A program made the translations under genes and the position numbers. A DNA stretch of 64,000 nucleotides from an uncultured Eubacteriales bacterium (GTDB lineage: Bacteria; Bacillota; Clostridia; Oscillospirales; Oscillospiraceae). Location of the stretch: the NCBI GenBank assembly GCA_949283375.1, contig CASDSM010000012.1, forward strand, positions 44,827-108,826. Reading direction: 5' to 3'. Shown here in pieces: positions 15 to 9,806 of this stretch; position 1 is the first letter of the stretch, and every line of letters starts with the position of its first letter. Under the pieces are notes generated by a model. That model ran no database searches. It was not told the DNA's origin and was given only the letters and a program-made list of their open reading frames with translations.

Positions 15-1052
15 GTGCAGCCTGTGAAGCTGATCGACACACGCGACGCGGTGGGCCATGTGCTCTGCCACGATATCACGCAGATCATCCCCGGCGTGAC
101 CAAGGACGCCGTCTTCCGCAAGGGCCACATCGTCCGGGAGGAGGATATCCCCGTCCTCCTCTCCGTCGGCAAGGAGCATCTCTACGTCTGGGAGCAGCAG
201 GAGGGGATGGTTCACGAGAACGACGGGGCGGAGGCCCTGCGCGCGCTCTGTCAGGGGGAGAACATGCACCCCACGCCGGTCAAGGAGGGTAAGATCGAGC
301 TGATCGCCGACTGTGACGGCGTCCTCCTGGTGGACCGGGCCAAGCTGCGCGCCGTCAATTCCCTCGGCGAGCTGATGATCGCGAGCCGCCACGGGAACTT
401 CCCCGTCTCCAGGGGGGACAAGATCGCCGGTACCCGCGTCATTCCCCTCGTCATCGCCCGGGAGAAGCTGGACCGCGCGCGGGAGGTGACGGGCGGCGGC
501 CCCATTTTCCGCGTCCTGCCGTTTCACCCCAAGCGGGTTGGCCTGGTGGTCACCGGCAGCGAGGTCTACTACGGACGGATTGAGGACAAGTTCACCCCCG
601 TCCTGGAGGCCAAAATGGCAGAGTACGGGGCCGAGATCATCGGCCGTGAGGTCACCAACGACGAGGCGGAGATGACGACCGAGGCGATTTTCCGCCTGCT
701 GGAGGCGGGAGCGGAGATGGTGCTGTGTACCGGCGGCATGAGCGTCGACCCGGACGACCGCACCCCGCTGGCCATCCGCAACACCGGTGCGGAGATTGTC
801 ACCTATGGCGCGCCGGTGCTCCCGGGGGCGATGTTCCTCCTCGCCTATTGGGGGGAGCGGCGGATTCCCATCGTCGGCCTGCCCGGCTGCGTGATGTATG
901 CCAAACGCACCATCTTTGACCTCGTCCTCCCGCGGCTGATGGCGGATGTCCCGGTGCGCCGCGCGGACCTCGACGGGCTGGGAGAGGGCGGTCTGTGCCT
1001 GAACTGCCCGACCTGTACCTTCCCGAACTGCGGATTTGGAAAAGGAAGCTGA
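15..1052 (+). CDS. Molybdopterin-binding (MoeA-like/MoCF_biosynth) protein
   Basis: GTG start after GAGGAAG; motifs TGSEV, TGGMSVDPDD.TP, PG.M, GLPGC; C-terminal CLNCPTCTFPNC; heads a Moco gene run. Confidence 0.8.
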   Translation: MQPVKLIDTRDAVGHVLCHDITQIIPGVTKDAVFRKGHIVREEDIPVLLSVGKEHLYVWEQQEGMVHENDGAEALRALCQGENMHPTPVKEGKIELIADCDGVLLVDRAKLRAVNSLGELMIASRHGNFPVSRGDKIAGTRVIPLVIAREKLDRAREVTGGGPIFRVLPFHPKRVGLVVTGSEVYYGRIEDKFTPVLEAKMAEYGAEIIGREVTNDEAEMTTEAIFRLLEAGAEMVLCTGGMSVDPDDRTPLAIRNTGAEIVTYGAPVLPGAMFLLAYWGERRIPIVGLPGCVMYAKRTIFDLVLPRLMADVPVRRADLDGLGEGGLCLNCPTCTFPNCGFGKGS

Positions 1053-1054
1053 AC

Positions 1055-1543
1055 ATGCGTCAATTTACCCATCTGGACCAGAGCGGCAAAGCCACCATGG
1101 TGGACATCAGCGCCAAGGCGGAGACCGTCCGCACCGCCACCGCGCAGGGCCGCATTAAAGTCAATCAGGATATCTTTCAGGCCATCGCCGCCCAGCGGGC
1201 GGAGAAGGGGGACGTCTTCGCCGTCGCCCGCGTGGCCGGCATTATGGCCGCCAAGCGGACGTGGGAGCTCATCCCTCTCTGCCACTCCCTCGCCCTGACC
1301 GATGTGCAGATCGCATTTCACATGTGCCGCGAGACCTGGGAGGTGGAGGCGGTCTGCACCGCGAAGTGCGTTGGCAAGACCGGCGTGGAGATGGAGGCGC
1401 TCACCGGCGTGAACGTCGCCCTGCTCACCATCTACGACATGTGCAAGGCGATGGGCCACGATATGGTGATCGGCCCGGTCTATCTGGCCGAGAAGAATGG
1501 CGGCAAGAGCGGCCGCTATGTCCGGGAGGGGGAGTCGCTGTGA
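1055..1543 (+). CDS. moaC: Cyclic pyranopterin monophosphate synthase
   Basis: FTHLDQSGKATMVDIS, LIPLCH and GVEMEAL motifs; ATG at 1055 in the 995..1543 frame. Confidence 0.95.
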   Translation: MRQFTHLDQSGKATMVDISAKAETVRTATAQGRIKVNQDIFQAIAAQRAEKGDVFAVARVAGIMAAKRTWELIPLCHSLALTDVQIAFHMCRETWEVEAVCTAKCVGKTGVEMEALTGVNVALLTIYDMCKAMGHDMVIGPVYLAEKNGGKSGRYVREGESL

Positions 1544-2556
1544 ATTACGTCCGACAGCTCGCCTCCCTGCCCGAGCGGCGGGGCATCCGCACGGCGGTCG
1601 TCCTGGAGGGGGACTGTCAGGGGCACCGGCTGATCTTCGCCCCCGGATTTCCCCTCGGCTGTGAGCCGAAGAACAGCCCACTCCTCGCCTCCCTCCCCCT
1701 GCTCGGCATCATCCCGGAGACCTGCACCCTCTCCCTCGGCGGACAGCGCATCTTCCTCGAGGTGCTCGAAGACACGCCCCGTCTCGTCCTCTGCGGCGCG
1801 GGGCACGTCTCCCTCGCCCTGATTCAGATGGCAAAGCTCCTCGAGCTGCCGGTCACCGTCCTGGAGGACCGGGAGGAGTATGCCCAGCGCGCCCGCGAGG
1901 CGGGGGCGGACGAGGTGGTCTGCAAGCCCTTTGAGGAGGCGCTCGACGAGCTGCCCGGCTCGATGGACACCTATTTCATCATCGTCACCCGGGAGCACCT
2001 CTATGACCGCAAGTGCCTGGAGCGGATCCTGCCCAAGGAGTGGGCCTATCTCGGCATGATGGGCAGCGCCAAACGGGTCGAGCTGGTGCGCCGCCAGATG
2101 CTGGCCGCCGGGGCGGACCCGGAGCGGCTGGCCCGGCTCCACGCCCCCATCGGCCTGAACATCGGCGCCGAGACCCCGCAGGAGATCGCCCTTTCCATCC
2201 TCTCCGAGGTGGTGCAGGCCCGGCGGCAGGGCCAGCATGCGAGCGGCTACTCCGGCGCGCTGCTGCGCGCGGCGGCGGAAGGCGGCGTCCTCGCCGTCAT
2301 CGTCTCCAAGGAGGGCTCCGCCCCACGCGGCATCGGCACAAAGATGCTCCTCACGCCAGACGGCCAGACGGGCACCATCGGCGGCGGCCTGCTGGAGGCG
2401 GACGTGCTGCGCGCCGGGCGCGAGATGCTCGCCTCGGGCGAGAGCTGCCGCCTGGCTCAGTTTGCCCTCACCCCCGCGCGCACCCAGGAGACGATGGCCT
2501 GCGGCGGCTCGGTGGAGGTCTTCCTCGAGCGTCTGGAGGCGGAGACCGCCCGATGA
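1540..2556 (+). CDS. XdhC/CoxI-family molybdoenzyme maturation factor
   Basis: GAGHV, VTREH..D, YLGMMGS, APIGLNIGAETPQEIA, GSAPR and GTIGGG...CGG motifs; GTG overlaps the moaC stop. Confidence 0.85.
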   Translation: MNYVRQLASLPERRGIRTAVVLEGDCQGHRLIFAPGFPLGCEPKNSPLLASLPLLGIIPETCTLSLGGQRIFLEVLEDTPRLVLCGAGHVSLALIQMAKLLELPVTVLEDREEYAQRAREAGADEVVCKPFEEALDELPGSMDTYFIIVTREHLYDRKCLERILPKEWAYLGMMGSAKRVELVRRQMLAAGADPERLARLHAPIGLNIGAETPQEIALSILSEVVQARRQGQHASGYSGALLRAAAEGGVLAVIVSKEGSAPRGIGTKMLLTPDGQTGTIGGGLLEADVLRAGREMLASGESCRLAQFALTPARTQETMACGGSVEVFLERLEAETAR

Positions 2557-3530
2557 GAGATCAGTTTGGCCGCGAGATCGACTATCTCCGCCTCTCTGTC
2601 ACCGACCGCTGCGGCTTTCGCTGCCGTTACTGCGTGAGCGGCGCGGGCGGCCCCTTCCTCCCGGAGGGGGACCTGCTGACGGACGGGGAGCTGGAGCGGG
2701 TGGTCCGCGCGGCCGCCTCCCTCGGCGTCACCCGCCTCAAGCTCACCGGCGGTGAGCCGCTCAACCGTCCCGGCATCGCCGCCCTCGCGGCCCGGCTGGG
2801 GGCGGTGGACGGCATCCGCTCGCTCACCCTCACCACGAACGGCGCCGCCCTCGCCCCCCTCGCGCGCGGCCTGCGCGCAGCCGGGGTGCGGGAGGTGAAC
2901 CTCAGCCTGGACACCCTCGACCGCGCGCGCTTTCTCGCCCTCACCGGGGTGGACGCCCTTGACCGGGTGCTCGCCGGGCTGGACGCGGCGGTGGAGGCGG
3001 GCTTTGAACGGGTGAAGCTCAACTGCGTCACCGGGCAGGACCTCGGCCAGGGGGACCCCGCCGCCCTGGCGGAGCTGGCGCTGGCGCGGGCGGTGGACGT
3101 GCGCTATATCGAGTCCATGCCCATCGGCTGCGGCAGGACCTTTCACCCGGTCACGCGCGCGCAGATGCTGCGCCGCCTGACGGATCGCTATGGACCGCTT
3201 CTCCCCGCCGGAGAGCGGGGCAACGGCCCGGCAGAGTATTACCGCATCCCCGGCTTTGCCGGACGGATCGGCTTTATCAGCGCGGTGAGCGAGCCGTTCT
3301 GCGCCGGATGCAACCGCATCCGCCTCACGCCGGACGGGCAGCTCAAGCCCTGCCTGCAATACCGCCCCACGCTGGACGTGCGCACCCTGCTGCGCGCCGG
3401 CGTTTCGGACGAGGCGCTGCGCGATGCGCTGCGTGAGGCGGTCTGGCAAAAGCCGCGCGCGCATCAGTTTGCACACCCCGCTGCGGGAGAGCGATTGGAA
3501 GACCGGCCCATGTCCGCCATCGGCGGCTGA
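2553..3530 (+). CDS. moaA: GTP 3',8-cyclase (radical SAM)
   Basis: YLRLSVTDRCGFRCRYC, LTGGEP, FCAGCNRIRLT...LKPCL and C-terminal MSAIGG; ATG at 2553 overlaps the upstream stop. Confidence 0.95.
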   Translation: MRDQFGREIDYLRLSVTDRCGFRCRYCVSGAGGPFLPEGDLLTDGELERVVRAAASLGVTRLKLTGGEPLNRPGIAALAARLGAVDGIRSLTLTTNGAALAPLARGLRAAGVREVNLSLDTLDRARFLALTGVDALDRVLAGLDAAVEAGFERVKLNCVTGQDLGQGDPAALAELALARAVDVRYIESMPIGCGRTFHPVTRAQMLRRLTDRYGPLLPAGERGNGPAEYYRIPGFAGRIGFISAVSEPFCAGCNRIRLTPDGQLKPCLQYRPTLDVRTLLRAGVSDEALRDALREAVWQKPRAHQFAHPAAGERLEDRPMSAIGG

Positions 3531-3555: not shown

Positions 3556-4518
3556 ATGGGAATCCTGAGAGGGATCTGCATCAGCCAGCGGCGCGGCATC
3601 GCCAAGCGCCCCTGTGAGGAGATCGACCTGATCGAGGGCTTCGGCCTGGCGGGGGACGCCCACGGCGGCCCCTGGCACCGTCAGGTCAGCCTGCTGGCAA
3701 AGGAATCGGTGGACGCGTTCAACGCCGCAGGCGGCGGCGTCGGTCCGGGCGATTTCGGAGAAAATCTCATTGTGGAGGGCTTTGACCTGCGCCATCTCCC
3801 GGTGGGCGTTTGCTTCCAAATCGGAGACGCCCTGCTGGAGATGACCCAGATTGGCAAGGAGTGCCACAGCCACTGCGAGATCTACCACCGGGTGGGCCAC
3901 TGCATCATGCCGGCCAACGGCGTCTTTGCCGAGGTGCGGCGGGGCGGCCATATCCGCGTGGGGGACGAGGTGTGCCTGGTGCCCAATCCGGACCGGCGTC
4001 CCACCGTCGCCGTCGTCACGCTGAGCGACAAGGGCGCGCGCGGCGCGCGCACGGACGAGAGCGGCCCGCTCGCGGCGCGCATGGCGGAGGAGGCGGGCTA
4101 CCGCGTGGTGGAGACCCTCCTCCTCCCGGACGAGCAGTCCCGGCTGGAGCGCGAGCTCTGCCGCCTCGCGGACGGCCGTCAGGTCGCTCTGGTGCTCACC
4201 ACCGGCGGCACCGGCTTCTCCCCGCGCGACCGCACGCCGGAGGCCACCCTGGCCGTCGCCGAGCGCAACGCCCCCGGCATCGCCGAGGCGATGCGCTGGC
4301 ACTCGCTCCAGATCACCCCGCGCGCCATGCTCAGCCGCGGCGCGAGCGTGATCCGTGGCAAGACCCTGATCGTTAACCTGCCGGGCAGCCCGAAGGCGGT
4401 GCGGGAGCACCTGGAGTTCCTCCTGCCCAACCTGGCGCACGGCATCCAGATCTTGCGGGGGGAGGCCGCCGAGTGCGGCCATCCGGCCCACCCGCCCAAA
4501 AAGGAGGAAACGACATGA
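3556..4518 (+). CDS. MOSC domain fused to MogA/MoaB molybdopterin adenylyltransferase domain
   Basis: N-half GDAH...RQVSLL, FGENL, QIGKECH; C-half SDK, TTGGTGFSPRD.TPEAT, SRG, NLPGSPKA; RBS AAAGGAG. Confidence 0.88.
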   Translation: MGILRGICISQRRGIAKRPCEEIDLIEGFGLAGDAHGGPWHRQVSLLAKESVDAFNAAGGGVGPGDFGENLIVEGFDLRHLPVGVCFQIGDALLEMTQIGKECHSHCEIYHRVGHCIMPANGVFAEVRRGGHIRVGDEVCLVPNPDRRPTVAVVTLSDKGARGARTDESGPLAARMAEEAGYRVVETLLLPDEQSRLERELCRLADGRQVALVLTTGGTGFSPRDRTPEATLAVAERNAPGIAEAMRWHSLQITPRAMLSRGASVIRGKTLIVNLPGSPKAVREHLEFLLPNLAHGIQILRGEAAECGHPAHPPKKEETT

Positions 4519-6137
4519 GCGACCGCATGCATCCCATCCCCTTTGAGCAGCTCCTGCTGAGCGTCCTGCGCGAGATGAGGGAGAGCGGCTCCGTCCTCTC
4601 CGTCCCCGCCGTCCGTCCGCCCCACCGCCCCACGCCGTTCTGCGGCGGCACGCTGGAGACTCCGCTCGGCCCCGCCGCCGGGCCGCACACCCAGCTGGCC
4701 GGCAACCTCGCCGCCGCCTACGCCGCCGGAGCCCGCGTCTTTGAGCTCAAGACGGTGCAGATCATTGACGGGGAGGACCTGCCGGTAGAGAAGCCCTGCA
4801 TCTATGTGGACGGCGAGTGCTACAACGTGGAGTGGTCCACCGAGCTGACCGTCCCCCAGGCGAGTGCGGAGTACGTCAAGGCGTGGATTCTGATCCACCT
4901 GCTCGCGCGGGAATTTGACCTGGGCAGCCCGGAGGGCTTCCAGTTCCACATGTCGGTGGGCTATGATCTCGACGGCCTGCGCTCGGAGAAGGTGGACCGC
5001 TTTATCGAGGAGATGAAGGACGCCTCCCGCTCTCCCGTCTGGGACAGCTGCCTGGAGACGGTGCGCCGCCACCTGGACCTCTTCCAGAAGGTGACGGCGG
5101 CGGATGTGGACGCCATCCCCACCCGCATCTGCAACACTGTCACCCTCTCCACCATGCACGGCTGTCCGGTGGACGAGATCGAGCGCATGGTCTCCTACAT
5201 GCTGGTGGACAAGGGGCTCAACACCTTTCTCAAGTGCAATCCCACCCTGGTCGGCTATGAGCAGGCCCGCCGGGTGCTGGACGAAAACGGCTACGACTAC
5301 CTCAGCTTCGGCCCGGAGGGCTTCGCCCGCGACCTCCAGCCGGACTACGCCGTGGAGATGCTCCGCCGCCAGACGGAGCTGGCCCGCGCGCACGGAAAGA
5401 TTCTGGGCGTCAAGCTGACCAACACCTTCCCGGTCGCCATCTGCAACCGCGAGCTCCCGGGGGAGACGATGTACCTGTCCGGAAAGCCCCTCTTCCTGCT
5501 TGCCATCCGCACGGCGCAGCTTCTCTCGGACGCCTTTGGCGGCGCGCTCCCCGTCTCCTTCTCCGGCGGCATCGACGCGCACAATATCGCCGCGGTGCTC
5601 TCCACCGGCATCGCCCCAGTGACGGTGGCCACCCTGCTGCTGAAAAACGGCGGCTACCGCAATCTAACCCGCCTGGCTGCCCTTGTCCCGGAAAGAATTC
5701 CCGCCCAGGTGGACTGCGCGGCCCTCGGCAGGCTGATCGGGGAGACGGCGGCGGACCCCTACTACCACAAGGAGAAGCCCCGCCGCAAGGTGGCGCGGCA
5801 GATACCGGACGACCCCGCCTGCTACCGCTGCCGCAACTGCGTGGACGTCTGTCCCAACCGGGCGAACGTCCCCCTCCCCGCGCTCAAGCGGGCGGTCCAT
5901 ATCGAGGGCCTCTGCAACGAGTGCGGCAACTGTGTCTGCTTCTGCCCGTTTGGCTACCTGCCCTACCGGGATAAGTTCACCCTCTTCTCCAGCCGCGCGG
6001 AGATGGCGGCCAGTGGGAACGACGGGTTCTGCGCCGAGGACGGCTCGGTCCGCTACGCCGGGACGGTCTACACCGGCGCGGAGGCGATGGAGGCCATCCC
6101 GGAGACCCTGCGCGCCGTGGTGGAGGCAATTTCGTGA
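4515..6137 (+). CDS. YgfK-like flavo-iron-sulfur protein, short form (FMN TIM barrel plus C-terminal ferredoxin)
   Basis: MSDRMHPIPF, GPAAGPHTQLA, FELKTVQ, KPCI, YNVEWSTEL, TLSTMHGCP, KCNPTL, KLTNTFPV; CxxCxxCxxxCP and CNECGNC..FCP; RBS AAGGAGG. Confidence 0.8.
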   Translation: MSDRMHPIPFEQLLLSVLREMRESGSVLSVPAVRPPHRPTPFCGGTLETPLGPAAGPHTQLAGNLAAAYAAGARVFELKTVQIIDGEDLPVEKPCIYVDGECYNVEWSTELTVPQASAEYVKAWILIHLLAREFDLGSPEGFQFHMSVGYDLDGLRSEKVDRFIEEMKDASRSPVWDSCLETVRRHLDLFQKVTAADVDAIPTRICNTVTLSTMHGCPVDEIERMVSYMLVDKGLNTFLKCNPTLVGYEQARRVLDENGYDYLSFGPEGFARDLQPDYAVEMLRRQTELARAHGKILGVKLTNTFPVAICNRELPGETMYLSGKPLFLLAIRTAQLLSDAFGGALPVSFSGGIDAHNIAAVLSTGIAPVTVATLLLKNGGYRNLTRLAALVPERIPAQVDCAALGRLIGETAADPYYHKEKPRRKVARQIPDDPACYRCRNCVDVCPNRANVPLPALKRAVHIEGLCNECGNCVCFCPFGYLPYRDKFTLFSSRAEMAASGNDGFCAEDGSVRYAGTVYTGAEAMEAIPETLRAVVEAIS

Positions 6138-6601
6138 ACATGACCGAGCTGCTCTCCGCCGGACTCCCCTCCGGCTGCACGGTGGAGCTGGCGGAGGACC
6201 AGGCCTCCCTCGTGGACTGCCTGCGCCTGCGCGTGGAGGTCTTCGTCGTGGAGCAGGGGGTCTCCCCGGCCATCGAGCTGGACGAGGCGGACCGGGACTG
6301 CACCCACGTCCTCCTGCGCGTGGACGGGGCGCCCTGCGCCGCCCTCCGCCTCCTCTGGGAGCCGCACGCCGTCCACGTTGGCCGCCTGGTGGTGAAGAAG
6401 GCCGTCCGGGGCGGCGGTTACGGGAGAATGCTGATGCAGGCGATCGAGCGTCTGGACCGGGTGCGCGCCTGCGGCCTGCTCCAGCTGGACGCGCAGTGCC
6501 AGGCGATCGGCTTTTATGAGCACTGCGGCTACCGCTGCTACGGCCCTGTCTTTCAGGATGCGGGCATCCCCCACCGCAAATGCGAAAAGCGCCTCGGCTG
6601 A
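6134..6601 (+). CDS. GNAT acetyltransferase, ElaA/YjcF-like
   Basis: LRVEVFVVEQG...ELDEAD, GRLVV...RGGGYG, AQ.QA.GFYE..G, DAGIPH; start 6134 (GTG) or 6140 (ATG). Confidence 0.85.
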   Translation: MNMTELLSAGLPSGCTVELAEDQASLVDCLRLRVEVFVVEQGVSPAIELDEADRDCTHVLLRVDGAPCAALRLLWEPHAVHVGRLVVKKAVRGGGYGRMLMQAIERLDRVRACGLLQLDAQCQAIGFYEHCGYRCYGPVFQDAGIPHRKCEKRLG

Positions 6602-6712: not shown

Positions 6713-7885
6713 ATGCGATATATTCCCAATACGCCGGAGGGGACGCGCGACCGCCTCTTTGAGGAGTGCCGCGAGCGCCGCCGCGTCCAGTCCGCCCTGA
6801 CACACCTGTTCCGCCAGCGCGGCTACAGCGAGATCATAACCCCGGAGGAGGAGTACTACGACCTCTTCACCATCGCCGGCAGCGCCCTGAGGCAGGAGGA
6901 GATGGTCAAGCTGGTGGACCGGTCCGGCAAGATCTGCGTCCTGCGCCCGGACTGCACCACCCCCATCGCCCGCGTCGCGGCGACCAAGCTGAAGGACGCC
7001 ATTCTCCCCCAGCGCTTTTACTACAATCAGGCGGTCTACCGCGCCGGTCAGGAGCACCGCGGCCAGCACCGGGAGATCCCCCAGTGCGGCATCGAGCTGA
7101 TCGGGGCCAAGGGGAAGAAGGCGGACCTCGAGGTGATCGCCACCGCCGTGGACGCCCTGCGCGCCTGCGGCCTTGAGCGCTTTCACATCGAGCTGGGCCA
7201 CGCGGACATCTTCCCGGCCTTTGCCCGGCGGCTGGAGATGGACCGGGAGGAGCTCGAGCAGATGCGCGCGCTGATTGAAGGGAAGAACTTTACCTCTCTG
7301 GACGACTTTATGTCCAACTACGCCGGTCAATCCGGCTGTGAGGCGGTGCGCCGCCTGGCCGACCTCTTCGGCGGGGTGGAGGTACTCGACGAGGCGGAGC
7401 GCCTCGCCGGGCCGATGCAGGCGATCGACTACCTGCGCGGCCTCCATACCCAGCTCGACCAGGCGGGCTACGGCTCCTATCTCCGCTTTGACCTCGGCAT
7501 GGTCCATCACATTGACTACTACACCGGCCCCATCTTCCGCGGCTATGTGGAGGGCGCGGGAGACGCGGTGCTTAGCGGCGGCCGCTACGACCAGCTCTGC
7601 GCCGCCTTTGGCCGCCCGGCCCAGGCGACCGGCTTTGCCATCGACGTGGACGGCGTGGCCCGCTGCCTGCCAAAGGCTCCGCAGCCCCGCCTCGCGGCGG
7701 TGATCCACTATCCGCCCCATCTGATTGGCCGCGCTCTCGCCCTGGTGGACAGCCGCGCGCGGGGGACCTGCGAGCTCTCCCCATGCAGCCGTCTGGAGAG
7801 CACCCTGCGGCTCGCGCGGGAGAAGGGGATTGGGACGGTGCTCATCCTGGAGGAGGACGGCATTCGGGAGGTGACGGTGTCATGA
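6713..7885 (+). CDS. hisZ: ATP phosphoribosyltransferase regulatory subunit
   Basis: PEGTRD, LRPDCTTPIAR, Q.GIELIG, FDLGMV....YYTG, GGRYD. Confidence 0.95.
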   Translation: MRYIPNTPEGTRDRLFEECRERRRVQSALTHLFRQRGYSEIITPEEEYYDLFTIAGSALRQEEMVKLVDRSGKICVLRPDCTTPIARVAATKLKDAILPQRFYYNQAVYRAGQEHRGQHREIPQCGIELIGAKGKKADLEVIATAVDALRACGLERFHIELGHADIFPAFARRLEMDREELEQMRALIEGKNFTSLDDFMSNYAGQSGCEAVRRLADLFGGVEVLDEAERLAGPMQAIDYLRGLHTQLDQAGYGSYLRFDLGMVHHIDYYTGPIFRGYVEGAGDAVLSGGRYDQLCAAFGRPAQATGFAIDVDGVARCLPKAPQPRLAAVIHYPPHLIGRALALVDSRARGTCELSPCSRLESTLRLAREKGIGTVLILEEDGIREVTVS

Positions 7886-8523
7886 CGGAGCGCCTGCGCA
7901 TTGCCCTGACCAAGGGGCGGCTCCAGAAAAAGAGCATGTCCCTCTTCACCCGCGCCGGGCTGGACTGCGAGCCACTGGAGAATCCCGGCCGCCGCCTGAT
8001 TCACAGCCTGCCGAACTACCCCCTGGACGCGGTGCTCGCCAAGGCGCCAGACGTCATCACCTATGTCGAGCACGGCGTCTGTGACCTCGGCATCGTCGGC
8101 AAGGACACCATCCTGGAAAAGGGCGGTTCCTTCTATGAGGTACTCGACCTCGGCTTCGGCGCCTGCCGTTTTGCCCTGGCGGTGCCGGAGGGGCGGGACT
8201 TTTACGGCAGCTATAAAACGCGCACCATCGCGTCGAAGTATCCCAACGTGACCCGCGCCTTCTTCGAGCAAAAGGGGATGGACGTGGACATCATCAAGAT
8301 TGAGGGCTCCGTCGAGCTGGCCCCGCTGCTCGGCCTGGCGGACGGCATTGTGGACATCGTGGAGACGGGCGCGACGCTGGCGGCCAACGGTCTGATTCCG
8401 ATTGAGACGGTCGCCCGGGTCTCCGCCCGGCTGATCGTCAACACCGCCAGCATGAAGCTGCACAAGGCAGAGATCGCGGACCTGATTGCCCGCTGTGAGA
8501 GGGAAGTGAGGAGTGCCACATGA
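7882..8523 (+). CDS. hisG: ATP phosphoribosyltransferase, short form
   Basis: IALTKGRL, DVITYVE.G..DLGIVGKD, ATKY-like ASKYP, GSVELAP, DIVETG.TL.ANGL. Confidence 0.95.
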   Translation: MTERLRIALTKGRLQKKSMSLFTRAGLDCEPLENPGRRLIHSLPNYPLDAVLAKAPDVITYVEHGVCDLGIVGKDTILEKGGSFYEVLDLGFGACRFALAVPEGRDFYGSYKTRTIASKYPNVTRAFFEQKGMDVDIIKIEGSVELAPLLGLADGIVDIVETGATLAANGLIPIETVARVSARLIVNTASMKLHKAEIADLIARCEREVRSAT

Positions 8524-9806
8524 TTCAGATCGTAACGGCGGACGGCGTATCGGAACAGCGCCTGATTGCCGCCCTCAAGGCCCGCGCCGCCGCGGCGAAT
8601 GAGGAGATCTCCAAGACCGCGGCCGCCATTTTGGCTGATGTGCGCGCGCGCGGCTATGAGGCGGTGCGGGAGTACTCCCTGCGCTTTGACCGTGCTGAGC
8701 CGCGCGAGATCGGCCCGGAGGAGCTGGAGGCGGCCCGCGCGGCCTGCGCCCCCGAGCTGATCGCCGCGATGGAGCACGCCGCGGCGAATATCCGCGACTA
8801 CAACGAGAAGCTGCTCACCCACAGCCGCGAGTGGACTTCACCGGACGGCGGACGGGTGGGGCGCATCGTCCGCGCCCTCGACCGGGTAGGCGTCTACGTC
8901 CCCGGCGGCACGGCGGCCTACCCCAGCAGCGTGCTGATGAACGCGGTGCCCGCCAAGGTGGCCGGCGTCCGCGAGGTGGTGATGGTCACCCCGCCGACGG
9001 AGAATCTGAACGCCGCCGTCCTCGCCGCGGCGCAGATCGCCGGGGTGGACCGGGTGATCGCGGTGGGCGGCGCGCAGGCGGTGGCCGCCCTGACCTACGG
9101 GGCGGGCTTCATCCCCCAGGTGGACAAGCTGGTGGGGCCGGGCAACGCCTTCGTCGCCGCCGCCAAGCGCCTGGCCTATGGCACGCTGGACATCGACATG
9201 GTGGCCGGCCCCTCTGAGGTGCTGGTGATCGCCGACGACAGCGCCGACCCGAAGTTCGTCGCCGCCGACCTGCTCAGCCAGGCTGAACACGACCGGCTCG
9301 CCTCCCCCTGGCTGCTCACCGACTCGATGGCGCTGGCCGAGGCGGTGGACCGGGAGATGGAGCGCCAGACGGCCTACCTCTCCCGCAGCGAGATCATGGA
9401 GGCCTCCGTGCGCGACTACGGCGCGGCCATCGTCTGCCGCGACCTCGCCGCCTGCGTCGCGCTGGCCAACCTCGTCGCGCCGGAGCACCTGGAGATCGTC
9501 ACCCGCGCCCCGCGCGACCTGCTCGGCGGCATCTGCAATGCCGGCGCGGTCTTCCTCGGCGCATGGTCGCCCGAGCCGCTCGGGGACTACCTCGCAGGGC
9601 CGGACCACGTCCTGCCCACCAGCGGCACGGCCCGCTTCTTCTCCCCGCTGAGCGTGGAGGCCTTTTTGAAGAGTATGTCGGTGATCGAGTTTGACCGCGA
9701 GAGCCTCGCCGGGCTGCGGGAGGAGATCATCACCTTTGCCCGCGCGGAGCATCTGACTGCGCACGCGAACTCCATCGCCGTCCGGTTTGAGGATCGAGGT
9801 GAATAG
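8520..9806 (+). CDS. hisD: Histidinol dehydrogenase
   Basis: GVYVPGGTAAYPSS, GPGNAFVA.AK, IDMVAGPSE, QAEHD, APEHLE, GDYLAGPDHVLPT. Confidence 0.97.
   Translation: MIQIVTADGVSEQRLIAALKARAAAANEEISKTAAAILADVRARGYEAVREYSLRFDRAEPREIGPEELEAARAACAPELIAAMEHAAANIRDYNEKLLTHSREWTSPDGGRVGRIVRALDRVGVYVPGGTAAYPSSVLMNAVPAKVAGVREVVMVTPPTENLNAAVLAAAQIAGVDRVIAVGGAQAVAALTYGAGFIPQVDKLVGPGNAFVAAAKRLAYGTLDIDMVAGPSEVLVIADDSADPKFVAADLLSQAEHDRLASPWLLTDSMALAEAVDREMERQTAYLSRSEIMEASVRDYGAAIVCRDLAACVALANLVAPEHLEIVTRAPRDLLGGICNAGAVFLGAWSPEPLGDYLAGPDHVLPTSGTARFFSPLSVEAFLKSMSVIEFDRESLAGLREEIITFARAEHLTAHANSIAVRFEDRGE

Follow-up and report, generated by a model that had tools for sequence, protein, structure and literature searches.

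A two-module YgfK in an uncultured Oscillospiraceae bacterium: a conserved, probably ferredoxin-dependent form of the uric-acid pathway reductase

What remains of YgfK when the module that would feed it with electrons is missing from its chain? The gene set around ygfK has been assigned to the 2,8-dioxopurine (isoxanthine) pathway, in which Escherichia coli YgfK acts as an NAD(P)H-dependent 2,8-dioxopurine reductase whose product is trapped by SsnA (10.1101/2025.04.24.650524; 10.1101/2025.05.19.654654). The question is raised by a 64,000-nucleotide stretch of DNA (the window) from an uncultured Eubacteriales bacterium of the Oscillospiraceae (contig CASDSM010000012.1), in which a stop-free open reading frame (ORF) at 4515-6137 on the forward strand encodes a protein of 540 aa, here called short YgfK. 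A preliminary description made from the sequence had proposed that the N-terminal part of YgfK is joined directly to the C-terminal ferredoxin, and it had left a choice between a split-subunit enzyme, an enzyme fed by ferredoxin or flavodoxin, and the product of a deletion. Our analysis shows short YgfK to be a new architectural form of a known enzyme that is real, conserved and probably ferredoxin-dependent.

Evaluating the architecture against the NCBIfam model of YgfK (TIGR03315, 1012 positions) revealed that residues 2-431 match profile positions 1-438 and that a second stretch matches positions 888-970, leaving positions 439-887 unmatched and the score (608.1 bits, or 517 bits in the genome scan) below the curated cut-off of 835.3 bits. 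Alignment to E. coli YgfK (1032 aa) mapped the junction in the same way, with residues 1 to ~435 aligning to E. coli residues 1 to ~452 at 42% identity and residues 437-513 aligning to 903-984 at 49% identity, such that E. coli residues ~453-900 are skipped. The missing part is a GltD-like block of ~450 aa that holds Fer4_20 and the flavin adenine dinucleotide (FAD) and reduced nicotinamide adenine dinucleotide phosphate (NADPH) domains (Fer4_20 at 453-532 and Pyr_redox_2 at 552-839 of the E. coli protein). Short YgfK gave no Pfam match to Fer4_20 or Pyr_redox, and a scan of all 540 residues found no G.G..[GA] motif, bearing out the earlier remark that a GxGxxG dinucleotide motif is absent. 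Present are the C-terminal 2x[4Fe-4S] domain, with its CPNRAN and CNECGNC motifs, and the tail. The motif RRKVARQIPDDPAC is followed by C436-x2-C439-x2-C442-x3-C446-P and then by C467-x2-C470-x2-C473-x3-C477-P, two canonical CxxCxxCxxxCP motifs that bear out the C-terminal Cys clusters noted earlier, and the only Pfam matches are to a 4Fe-4S dicluster (Fer4_9 and Fer4_10, residues 432-480). Short YgfK is, as proposed, a YgfK barrel plus ferredoxin without the FAD/NAD(P)H module, similar to PreA in its overall logic. The gene is preceded by an AGGAGG Shine-Dalgarno sequence 7 nt 5' of ATG 4515, and this ATG shares the letters ATGA with the stop codon of the MOSC/MoaB gene before it. We take ATG 4515 and not GTG 4473 as the start because the N-terminus MSDRMHPIPFEQLL agrees with that of E. 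coli YgfK, MGDIMRPIPFEELL (MSDRMHPIPF and MGDIMRPIPF).

Because the copy of the PDB that we searched, with both the single protein and a 47-sequence profile, contains no solved YgfK barrel structure, we argue the fold from an AlphaFold2 model built on 47 short forms, which has a mean predicted local distance difference test (pLDDT) of 92 and a predicted template modelling score (pTM) of 0.93. Foldseek placed pig dihydropyrimidine dehydrogenase (DPD) first among PDB entries (E 4e-11, ~550 aligned columns covering about the full query length), followed by class 2 dihydroorotate dehydrogenases (DHODHs; E ~1e-9). At the level of sequence, no Pfam family, DHO_dh (PF01180) included, matched residues 1-430 at E<=0.01, and the sequence searches of the PDB retrieved only the ferredoxin domain together with marginal DHODH matches (E 0.055-0.07 with the 47-sequence profile, over residues 299-357). 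The fold supports the label of a flavin mononucleotide (FMN) barrel, and the domain presumably binds FMN; modelling of the E. coli YgfK barrel led to the same conclusion (10.1101/2025.05.19.654654). Conserved residues also tie the short form to its characterised relative: E. coli YgfK has the same residue at 92 of the 101 positions that are invariant among the 47 short forms (barrel, 73 of 82; ferredoxin domain and tail, 19 of 19). The invariant barrel motifs include GPAAGPHTQ, ELKTVQ, EWSTE, LSTMHGCP, KxNPTL, KLTNT and SxSGG, and the LS...CP loop, with its Cys217, is possibly the counterpart of the loop that carries the catalytic Cys671 in DPD.

The genomic setting associates short ygfK with uric-acid degradation. 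The contig carries ssnA and hyuA (C12:42110-44853) shortly before the window begins, with a divergent YheO-like regulator before ssnA; SsnA is recognised by TIGR03314 at 565 bits, above cut-off, and the hyuA-like hydantoinase is 53% identical to the HyuA of another carrier (locus L013). The operon reads ssnA, hyuA, MoeA-like gene, moaC, xdhC, moaA, MOSC-MoaB gene, short ygfK and GNAT gene, with genes that overlap or abut, and the same synteny is found in genus relatives. Other carriers hold short ygfK between ssnA and hyuA/xdhAC within complete uric-acid clusters, which also include a YheO-like regulator, ygeX, ygeY, ygeW or a UacY-like gene, yqeA and a permease. Elsewhere in its own genome are ygeY-ygeW-yqeA (C32:86902-90496) and a fused 2Fe-2S/molybdenum cofactor (MoCo) gene of the XdhAC type, 55% identical to the one at L013. 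Immediately upstream of this fused, FAD-less gene and near a contig end, we also observed a conventional three-subunit xanthine dehydrogenase (MoCo, 2Fe-2S and XdhB-like FAD subunits), and the pair (C31:95913-101963) looks like the xanthine-to-urate and urate-to-2,8-dioxopurine enzymes side by side. The short form showed no correlation with a missing YgfM/XdhB-type FAD subunit: XdhB-like genes adjoin both short (Blautia) and long ygfK, and YgfM itself is seldom found beyond E. coli.

Taken with its architecture, we consider it probable that short ygfK encodes a functional two-module YgfK/DOPOR, a ferredoxin- or flavodoxin-dependent 2,8-dioxopurine reductase, with most of the remaining doubt falling on the electron donor. 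The N-terminal DHOD/DPD-like barrel would bind FMN and the purine and reduce 2,8-dioxopurine, and the 2x[4Fe-4S] ferredoxin domain would conduct electrons to the flavin in the manner of the C-terminal clusters of DPD. Because the NADPH-to-FAD-to-[4Fe-4S] input module is absent and no partner is encoded nearby, electrons would most likely be delivered to the exposed clusters by a soluble carrier of low potential, which may be reduced ferredoxin (for example from pyruvate:ferredoxin oxidoreductase, PFOR) or flavodoxin. Its own genome encodes PFOR (1731 bits). The product would then be pulled onward through hydrolysis by SsnA, whose gene is in the same operon. Related enzymes of the pathway may have a similar electron supply: the XdhAC type in these clusters is also without a FAD subunit, the XdhAC of Clostridium sporogenes does not use NAD(P)H, and the FAD-less UacX that replaces YgfK in Clostridioides difficile was assayed with reduced methyl viologen, with reduced ferredoxin as its proposed donor (10.1101/2025.05.19.654654). 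The YgfK step has been reported to be thermodynamically unfavourable with NADPH alone (10.1101/2025.05.19.654654), and a low-potential donor would ease this dearomatisation.

The alternative that survives best, doubtful as we hold it to be, is a split-subunit enzyme in which short YgfK would be a PreA-like subunit and NAD(P)H would be the donor, by way of a PreT-like NAD(P)H/FAD/Fe-S subunit from another part of the genome (the NfnB/GltD-like protein of contig C36, for example). Such a division of labour has its precedent in the PreA/PreT dihydropyrimidine dehydrogenase, in which the barrel and ferredoxin of PreA work with a separate PreT, and this genome encodes a 465-aa GltD-like protein that matches positions 440-836 of the YgfK profile with 292 bits and shares 34% identity with the middle block of E. 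coli YgfK. The search of the genome for a stand-alone GltD/PreT-like gene (TIGR03315 scan and reading of the ORFs) did return two GltD-like genes and only two, but each has an obvious primary partner, one adjoining gltB (1559 aa) and the other an NfnA-like gene in an NfnAB-type pair. Searches by tblastn with the E. coli middle block found no GltD-like ORF within +-10 kb at 24 short loci, and none within that distance at the seven genus loci fetched, in a pathway whose dedicated subunits are otherwise tightly clustered. Of the two electron sources suggested in the preliminary description, a separate GltD-like subunit is thus left without support, and the ferredoxin or flavodoxin branch stands as the probable one.

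Several observations weigh against a ferredoxin- or flavodoxin-dependent 2,8-dioxopurine reductase. FMN binding is read from a fold likeness at ~14% identity with a template modelling (TM) score of 0.40, normalised to query length, and from a sequence signal of E ~0.06. Ferredoxin or flavodoxin is the most likely donor by what is missing, namely the NAD(P)H module and a neighbouring partner, and docking in trans by the NfnB-like protein encoded at C36:90094-91491 is conceivable. The short-ygfK clusters showed no conserved gene for a small ferredoxin or flavodoxin, and the carrier would therefore be a housekeeping one. Searching the whole genome (98.6% complete) by tblastn for ygeX (2,3-diaminopropionate ammonia-lyase) gave as its sole match a 27%-identity PALP protein on contig C22, and with ygeX undetected, the gene set of this organism does not explain the downstream end of the pathway in full.

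The undetected ygeX could also speak for a different job, in which the short clade would reduce another purine, a pyrimidine or a hydantoin-type substrate, or would run oxidatively, and would not be a 2,8-dioxopurine reductase. We regard this as improbable. Barrel identity to the characterised E. coli YgfK is only 42%, and at nine barrel positions the residue that all short forms share is replaced in E. coli, including C241->L beside the KxN motif, but the great share of invariant positions common to the two proteins (the 92 of 101 given above) argues against a change of substrate, as do the clusters themselves: short ygfK occupies the same slot beside ssnA as long ygfK in otherwise identical uric-acid clusters, and those clusters hold no second reductase candidate.

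We further evaluated how far the two-module form extends. A word-indexed search of 5.8 billion proteins revealed dozens of 90%-identity clusters, 535-567 aa in length, with matches of 47-94% identity along the entire query, and exhaustive HMMER searching of 50%-identity representatives yielded 432 relatives (E<1e-30), among them proteins of both ~540-580 aa and ~970-1100 aa. Multiple alignment showed that short forms merely 41-70% identical to the query share the identical junction, with barrel, short linker and ferredoxin motif. A species scan (one genome per species) placed short forms in Oscillospiraceae, Butyricicoccus, Anaerocolumna, Blautia intestinalis, Ruminococcus and Lachnotalea, as well as in Clostridium sp. 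KNHs205, Tissierellia, Filifactor, a Fusobacterium metagenome-assembled genome and Veillonella sp. R32, with barrel and ferredoxin matches separated by 10-232 nt at short loci against ~1300-1460 nt in long forms. Homologs of ~540 aa with the same junction, which the preliminary description had suggested looking for in several genera, are thus present in many genera and families, for the most part in Bacillota, with Fusobacterium outside that phylum. Within the GTDB genus of the window, ygfK occurs in 11 of 36 other species and is short in all of them (48-94% identity), with no long ygfK among the 36, and the 94%-identical relative is Candidatus Onthomonas avicola. None of 24 genomes sampled from other families of the order carries ygfK.

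Short ygfK is under purifying selection. Nei-Gojobori ratios of nonsynonymous to synonymous substitution (dN/dS) against two 94% orthologs are 0.11-0.13 overall and 0.04-0.05 in the ferredoxin domain, with a less constrained C-terminal tail (0.27-0.33), and all eight cluster cysteines are invariant or nearly so in the 47 sequences. Two copies within the survey are interrupted: an ortholog in the same genus (G011:C161:17185-18791) lies in two overlapping frames (residues 1-383 and 378-538) and is either a frameshift pseudogene or an assembly error, and the copy of G028 has one in-frame TAG near the contig start. That short ygfK is a degenerate remnant, a non-functional in-frame deletion allele of full-length ygfK, is hardly credible: the junction does lie between two Cys motifs, as expected from deletion between short similar sequences, and the ygfK of one genus relative (G011) is in two frames, but the short form is intact in 11 congeneric species and many genera, dN/dS is low overall and lower still in the ferredoxin domain, the cluster cysteines are kept, the gene has a strong ribosome-binding site and translational coupling inside an operon, and the AlphaFold2 model is confident and compact. 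The strain-specific, degenerate deletion that had been offered as an alternative is refuted by these 11 species, the many genera and the dN/dS values; close relatives carry the short form and not a full-length one, and selection on it is not relaxed.

A deletion joining two Cys motifs is nonetheless plausible as the evolutionary origin of the short form, old and apparently repeated, and not as a recent lesion. In a maximum-likelihood tree computed from 100 sequences of the N-terminal domain (quick search, unrooted, with imperfect supports), the window protein belongs to a clade whose 17 representatives are all short, with a Shimodaira-Hasegawa-like approximate likelihood-ratio (SH-aLRT) support of 99, and the remaining short forms are scattered among long ones such that well-supported branches force at least seven changes. 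A single origin of all short forms was rejected by the approximately unbiased (AU) test (p 4e-33). In the scattered short forms, the 'LPLLDC' that opens Fer4_20 in long YgfK runs straight into the C-x2-C-x3-CPNRAN of the C-terminal ferredoxin, and the motif region of the query aligns with both ends of the block that E. coli YgfK has and it lacks. These patterns would fit a module that was lost in frame more than once, between two Cys motifs that resemble each other, where the case for loss over gain is one of parsimony on an unrooted tree (the same module at the same site).

We also observed a third YgfK architecture of 836-872 aa, mainly in Megasphaera (proteins P0065-P0113 and P0122; loci L040, L044, L046 and L055). 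It keeps the barrel, Fer4_20, the FAD Rossmann domain and the C-terminal ferredoxin, the NADPH-binding domain segment is absent, and the gap between barrel and ferredoxin is ~840-880 nt against ~1320. Metagenomes contain this form in abundance, the largest of its clusters counting 3108 member sequences.

The genes that share the operon within the window and the parts of short YgfK are collected in Table 1. The first of these genes encodes a 345-aa protein with a Cys-rich C-terminus, CLNCPTCTFPNCGFGKG, that matched no NCBIfam model above cut-off; a 395-aa PF00994 protein is syntenic with it at locus L015, and it may be a specialised MoCo-handling protein of uric-acid clusters. The GNAT gene that follows short ygfK could start at GTG 6134, overlapping the ygfK TGA (6135-6137), or at ATG 6141, and it is absent from the uric-acid clusters seen in other carriers. 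Directly downstream lies the ordinary start of a histidine biosynthesis operon (hisZ, hisG and hisD, 6713-9806, forward strand).

Table 1. Features of the short ygfK operon within the window and domains of short YgfK, in window coordinates.
Feature	Coordinates	Strand	Basis
MoeA-like MoCF_biosynth-domain protein, Cys-rich C-terminus	15..1052	+	Pfam PF00994
moaC-like gene	1055..1543	+	ORF translation; syntenic PF01967 MoaC gene in L015
xdhC-family MoCo insertion/maturation factor	1540..2556	+	Pfam XdhC_C and XdhC_CoxI; NF045664 and TIGR02964 matches
moaA (GTP 3',8-cyclase)	2553..3530	+	TIGR02666, 324 bits, above cut-off
MOSC and MoaB/Mog-type gene (longest ORF from 3424)	3556..4518	+	Pfam MOSC, MoCF_biosynth
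short ygfK, 540 aa plus stop, candidate ferredoxin-dependent 2,8-dioxopurine reductase	4515..6137	+	TIGR03315; E. coli YgfK alignment
YgfK N-terminal domain, DHOD/DPD-like (beta/alpha)8 barrel, presumed FMN and substrate site, residues 1-430	4515..5804	+	AlphaFold2; Foldseek
2x[4Fe-4S] ferredoxin domain after barrel and short linker, residues 431-490	5805..5984	+	Pfam; E. coli YgfK 903-962
YgfK C-terminal tail, three short strands and helices, conserved, residues 491-540	5985..6134	+	Alignment to C-terminal end of long YgfK; pLDDT 85-94
GNAT acetyltransferase, overlaps or abuts ygfK stop	6134..6601	+	Pfam Acetyltransf_1, _7, _10

Comparison with known systems separates the descent of the short form from its working design. 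With full-length YgfK/DOPOR (NADPH:2,8-dioxopurine oxidoreductase; E. coli b2878, TIGR03315) it shares a homologous barrel (42%), the C-terminal 2x[4Fe-4S] domain and tail (49%) and the gene position next to ssnA in uric-acid clusters, but it is without the Fer4_20, FAD and NADPH block and the dinucleotide motif. Because the FAD/NAD(P)H block is missing, short YgfK is not expected to use NAD(P)H by itself, and because neither the central block nor the cut-off score of TIGR03315 is reached, it is not simply to be filed as 'YgfK'. PreA (E. coli YeiA) likewise joins a flavin barrel to a C-terminal 2x[4Fe-4S] domain and carries no NAD(P)H module in its chain, and the fold class is shared, DPD and DHODH being the top Foldseek matches of the short YgfK model. 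The barrel of short YgfK, however, belongs to another sequence family, no PreT-like gene is adjacent, and its substrate would be a purine and not a pyrimidine; since PF01180 gives no match at the threshold used, short YgfK is not a homolog of PreA or UacX in the family sense. Pig DPD (PDB 1H7W and 7M31, among others) is matched across its FMN barrel (domain IV) and C-terminal ferredoxin domain (domain V), but at ~14% identity, and its own GltD-like Fe-S, FAD and NADPH domains are N-terminal in the same chain, in another order.

Closest in working design are UacX of C. difficile and the clostridial PydA (PydAc), which catalyse the same or an analogous step with an FMN site and no FAD/NADPH domain (10.1101/2025.05.19.654654). 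Both were assayed with reduced methyl viologen, both have reduced ferredoxin as proposed donor, and they are accompanied by XdhD/XdhAC without a FAD subunit (10.1101/2025.05.19.654654). UacX belongs to PF01180 (PydA-type), whereas short YgfK has the YgfK barrel after what would be a module loss; the two are analogous solutions and not orthologs, and short YgfK has a PreA/PydAc/UacX-like working design and is a YgfK by descent. Databases name the short-form proteins 'selenate reductase', and selenate was found neither required by nor stimulating for E. coli YgfK (2,8-dioxopurine pathway preprint).

In the searchable literature we found no description of the short YgfK form, and the two pathway papers make no mention of a truncated or shorter YgfK (10.1101/2025.04.24.650524; 10.1101/2025.05.19.654654). 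As the UacX design has already been noted, the short form is no categorical surprise. It does bear on annotation, because the TIGR03315 cut-off leaves out every short form (608 bits for the one described here): short forms would not count as YgfK in an IPR017701 neighbourhood analysis, falling below the cut-off, nor in an 80%-coverage BLAST with a long query, of which they cover about half. Surveys by family models and coverage-filtered BLAST would in this way under-count the urate degraders of the gut. Short YgfK would also be a natural, minimal catalytic core of 540 aa that is suited to a first structure of the YgfK barrel, and it should be useful to specialists in gut purine metabolism.

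The function of YgfK/DOPOR was assigned only in 2025, and its step is the committed dearomatisation in the removal of urate by gut bacteria, with relevance to hyperuricaemia and gout. A common NADPH-independent form would mean that the electron supply of the uric-acid pathway is ferredoxin-linked in many Clostridia, at YgfK as well as at XdhAC. We see about even chances for a wider proposal, in which the NADPH-input module is detachable and has been lost several times at one Cys-motif junction, and in which a widespread ferredoxin-driven form and the FAD-less XdhAC together run both reductive uric acid steps on low-potential electrons in strict anaerobes. If this is true, low-potential electrons would make a difficult dearomatisation more favourable than NADPH does, and the repeated loss of one module would be a clean case of modular evolution in a redox enzyme.

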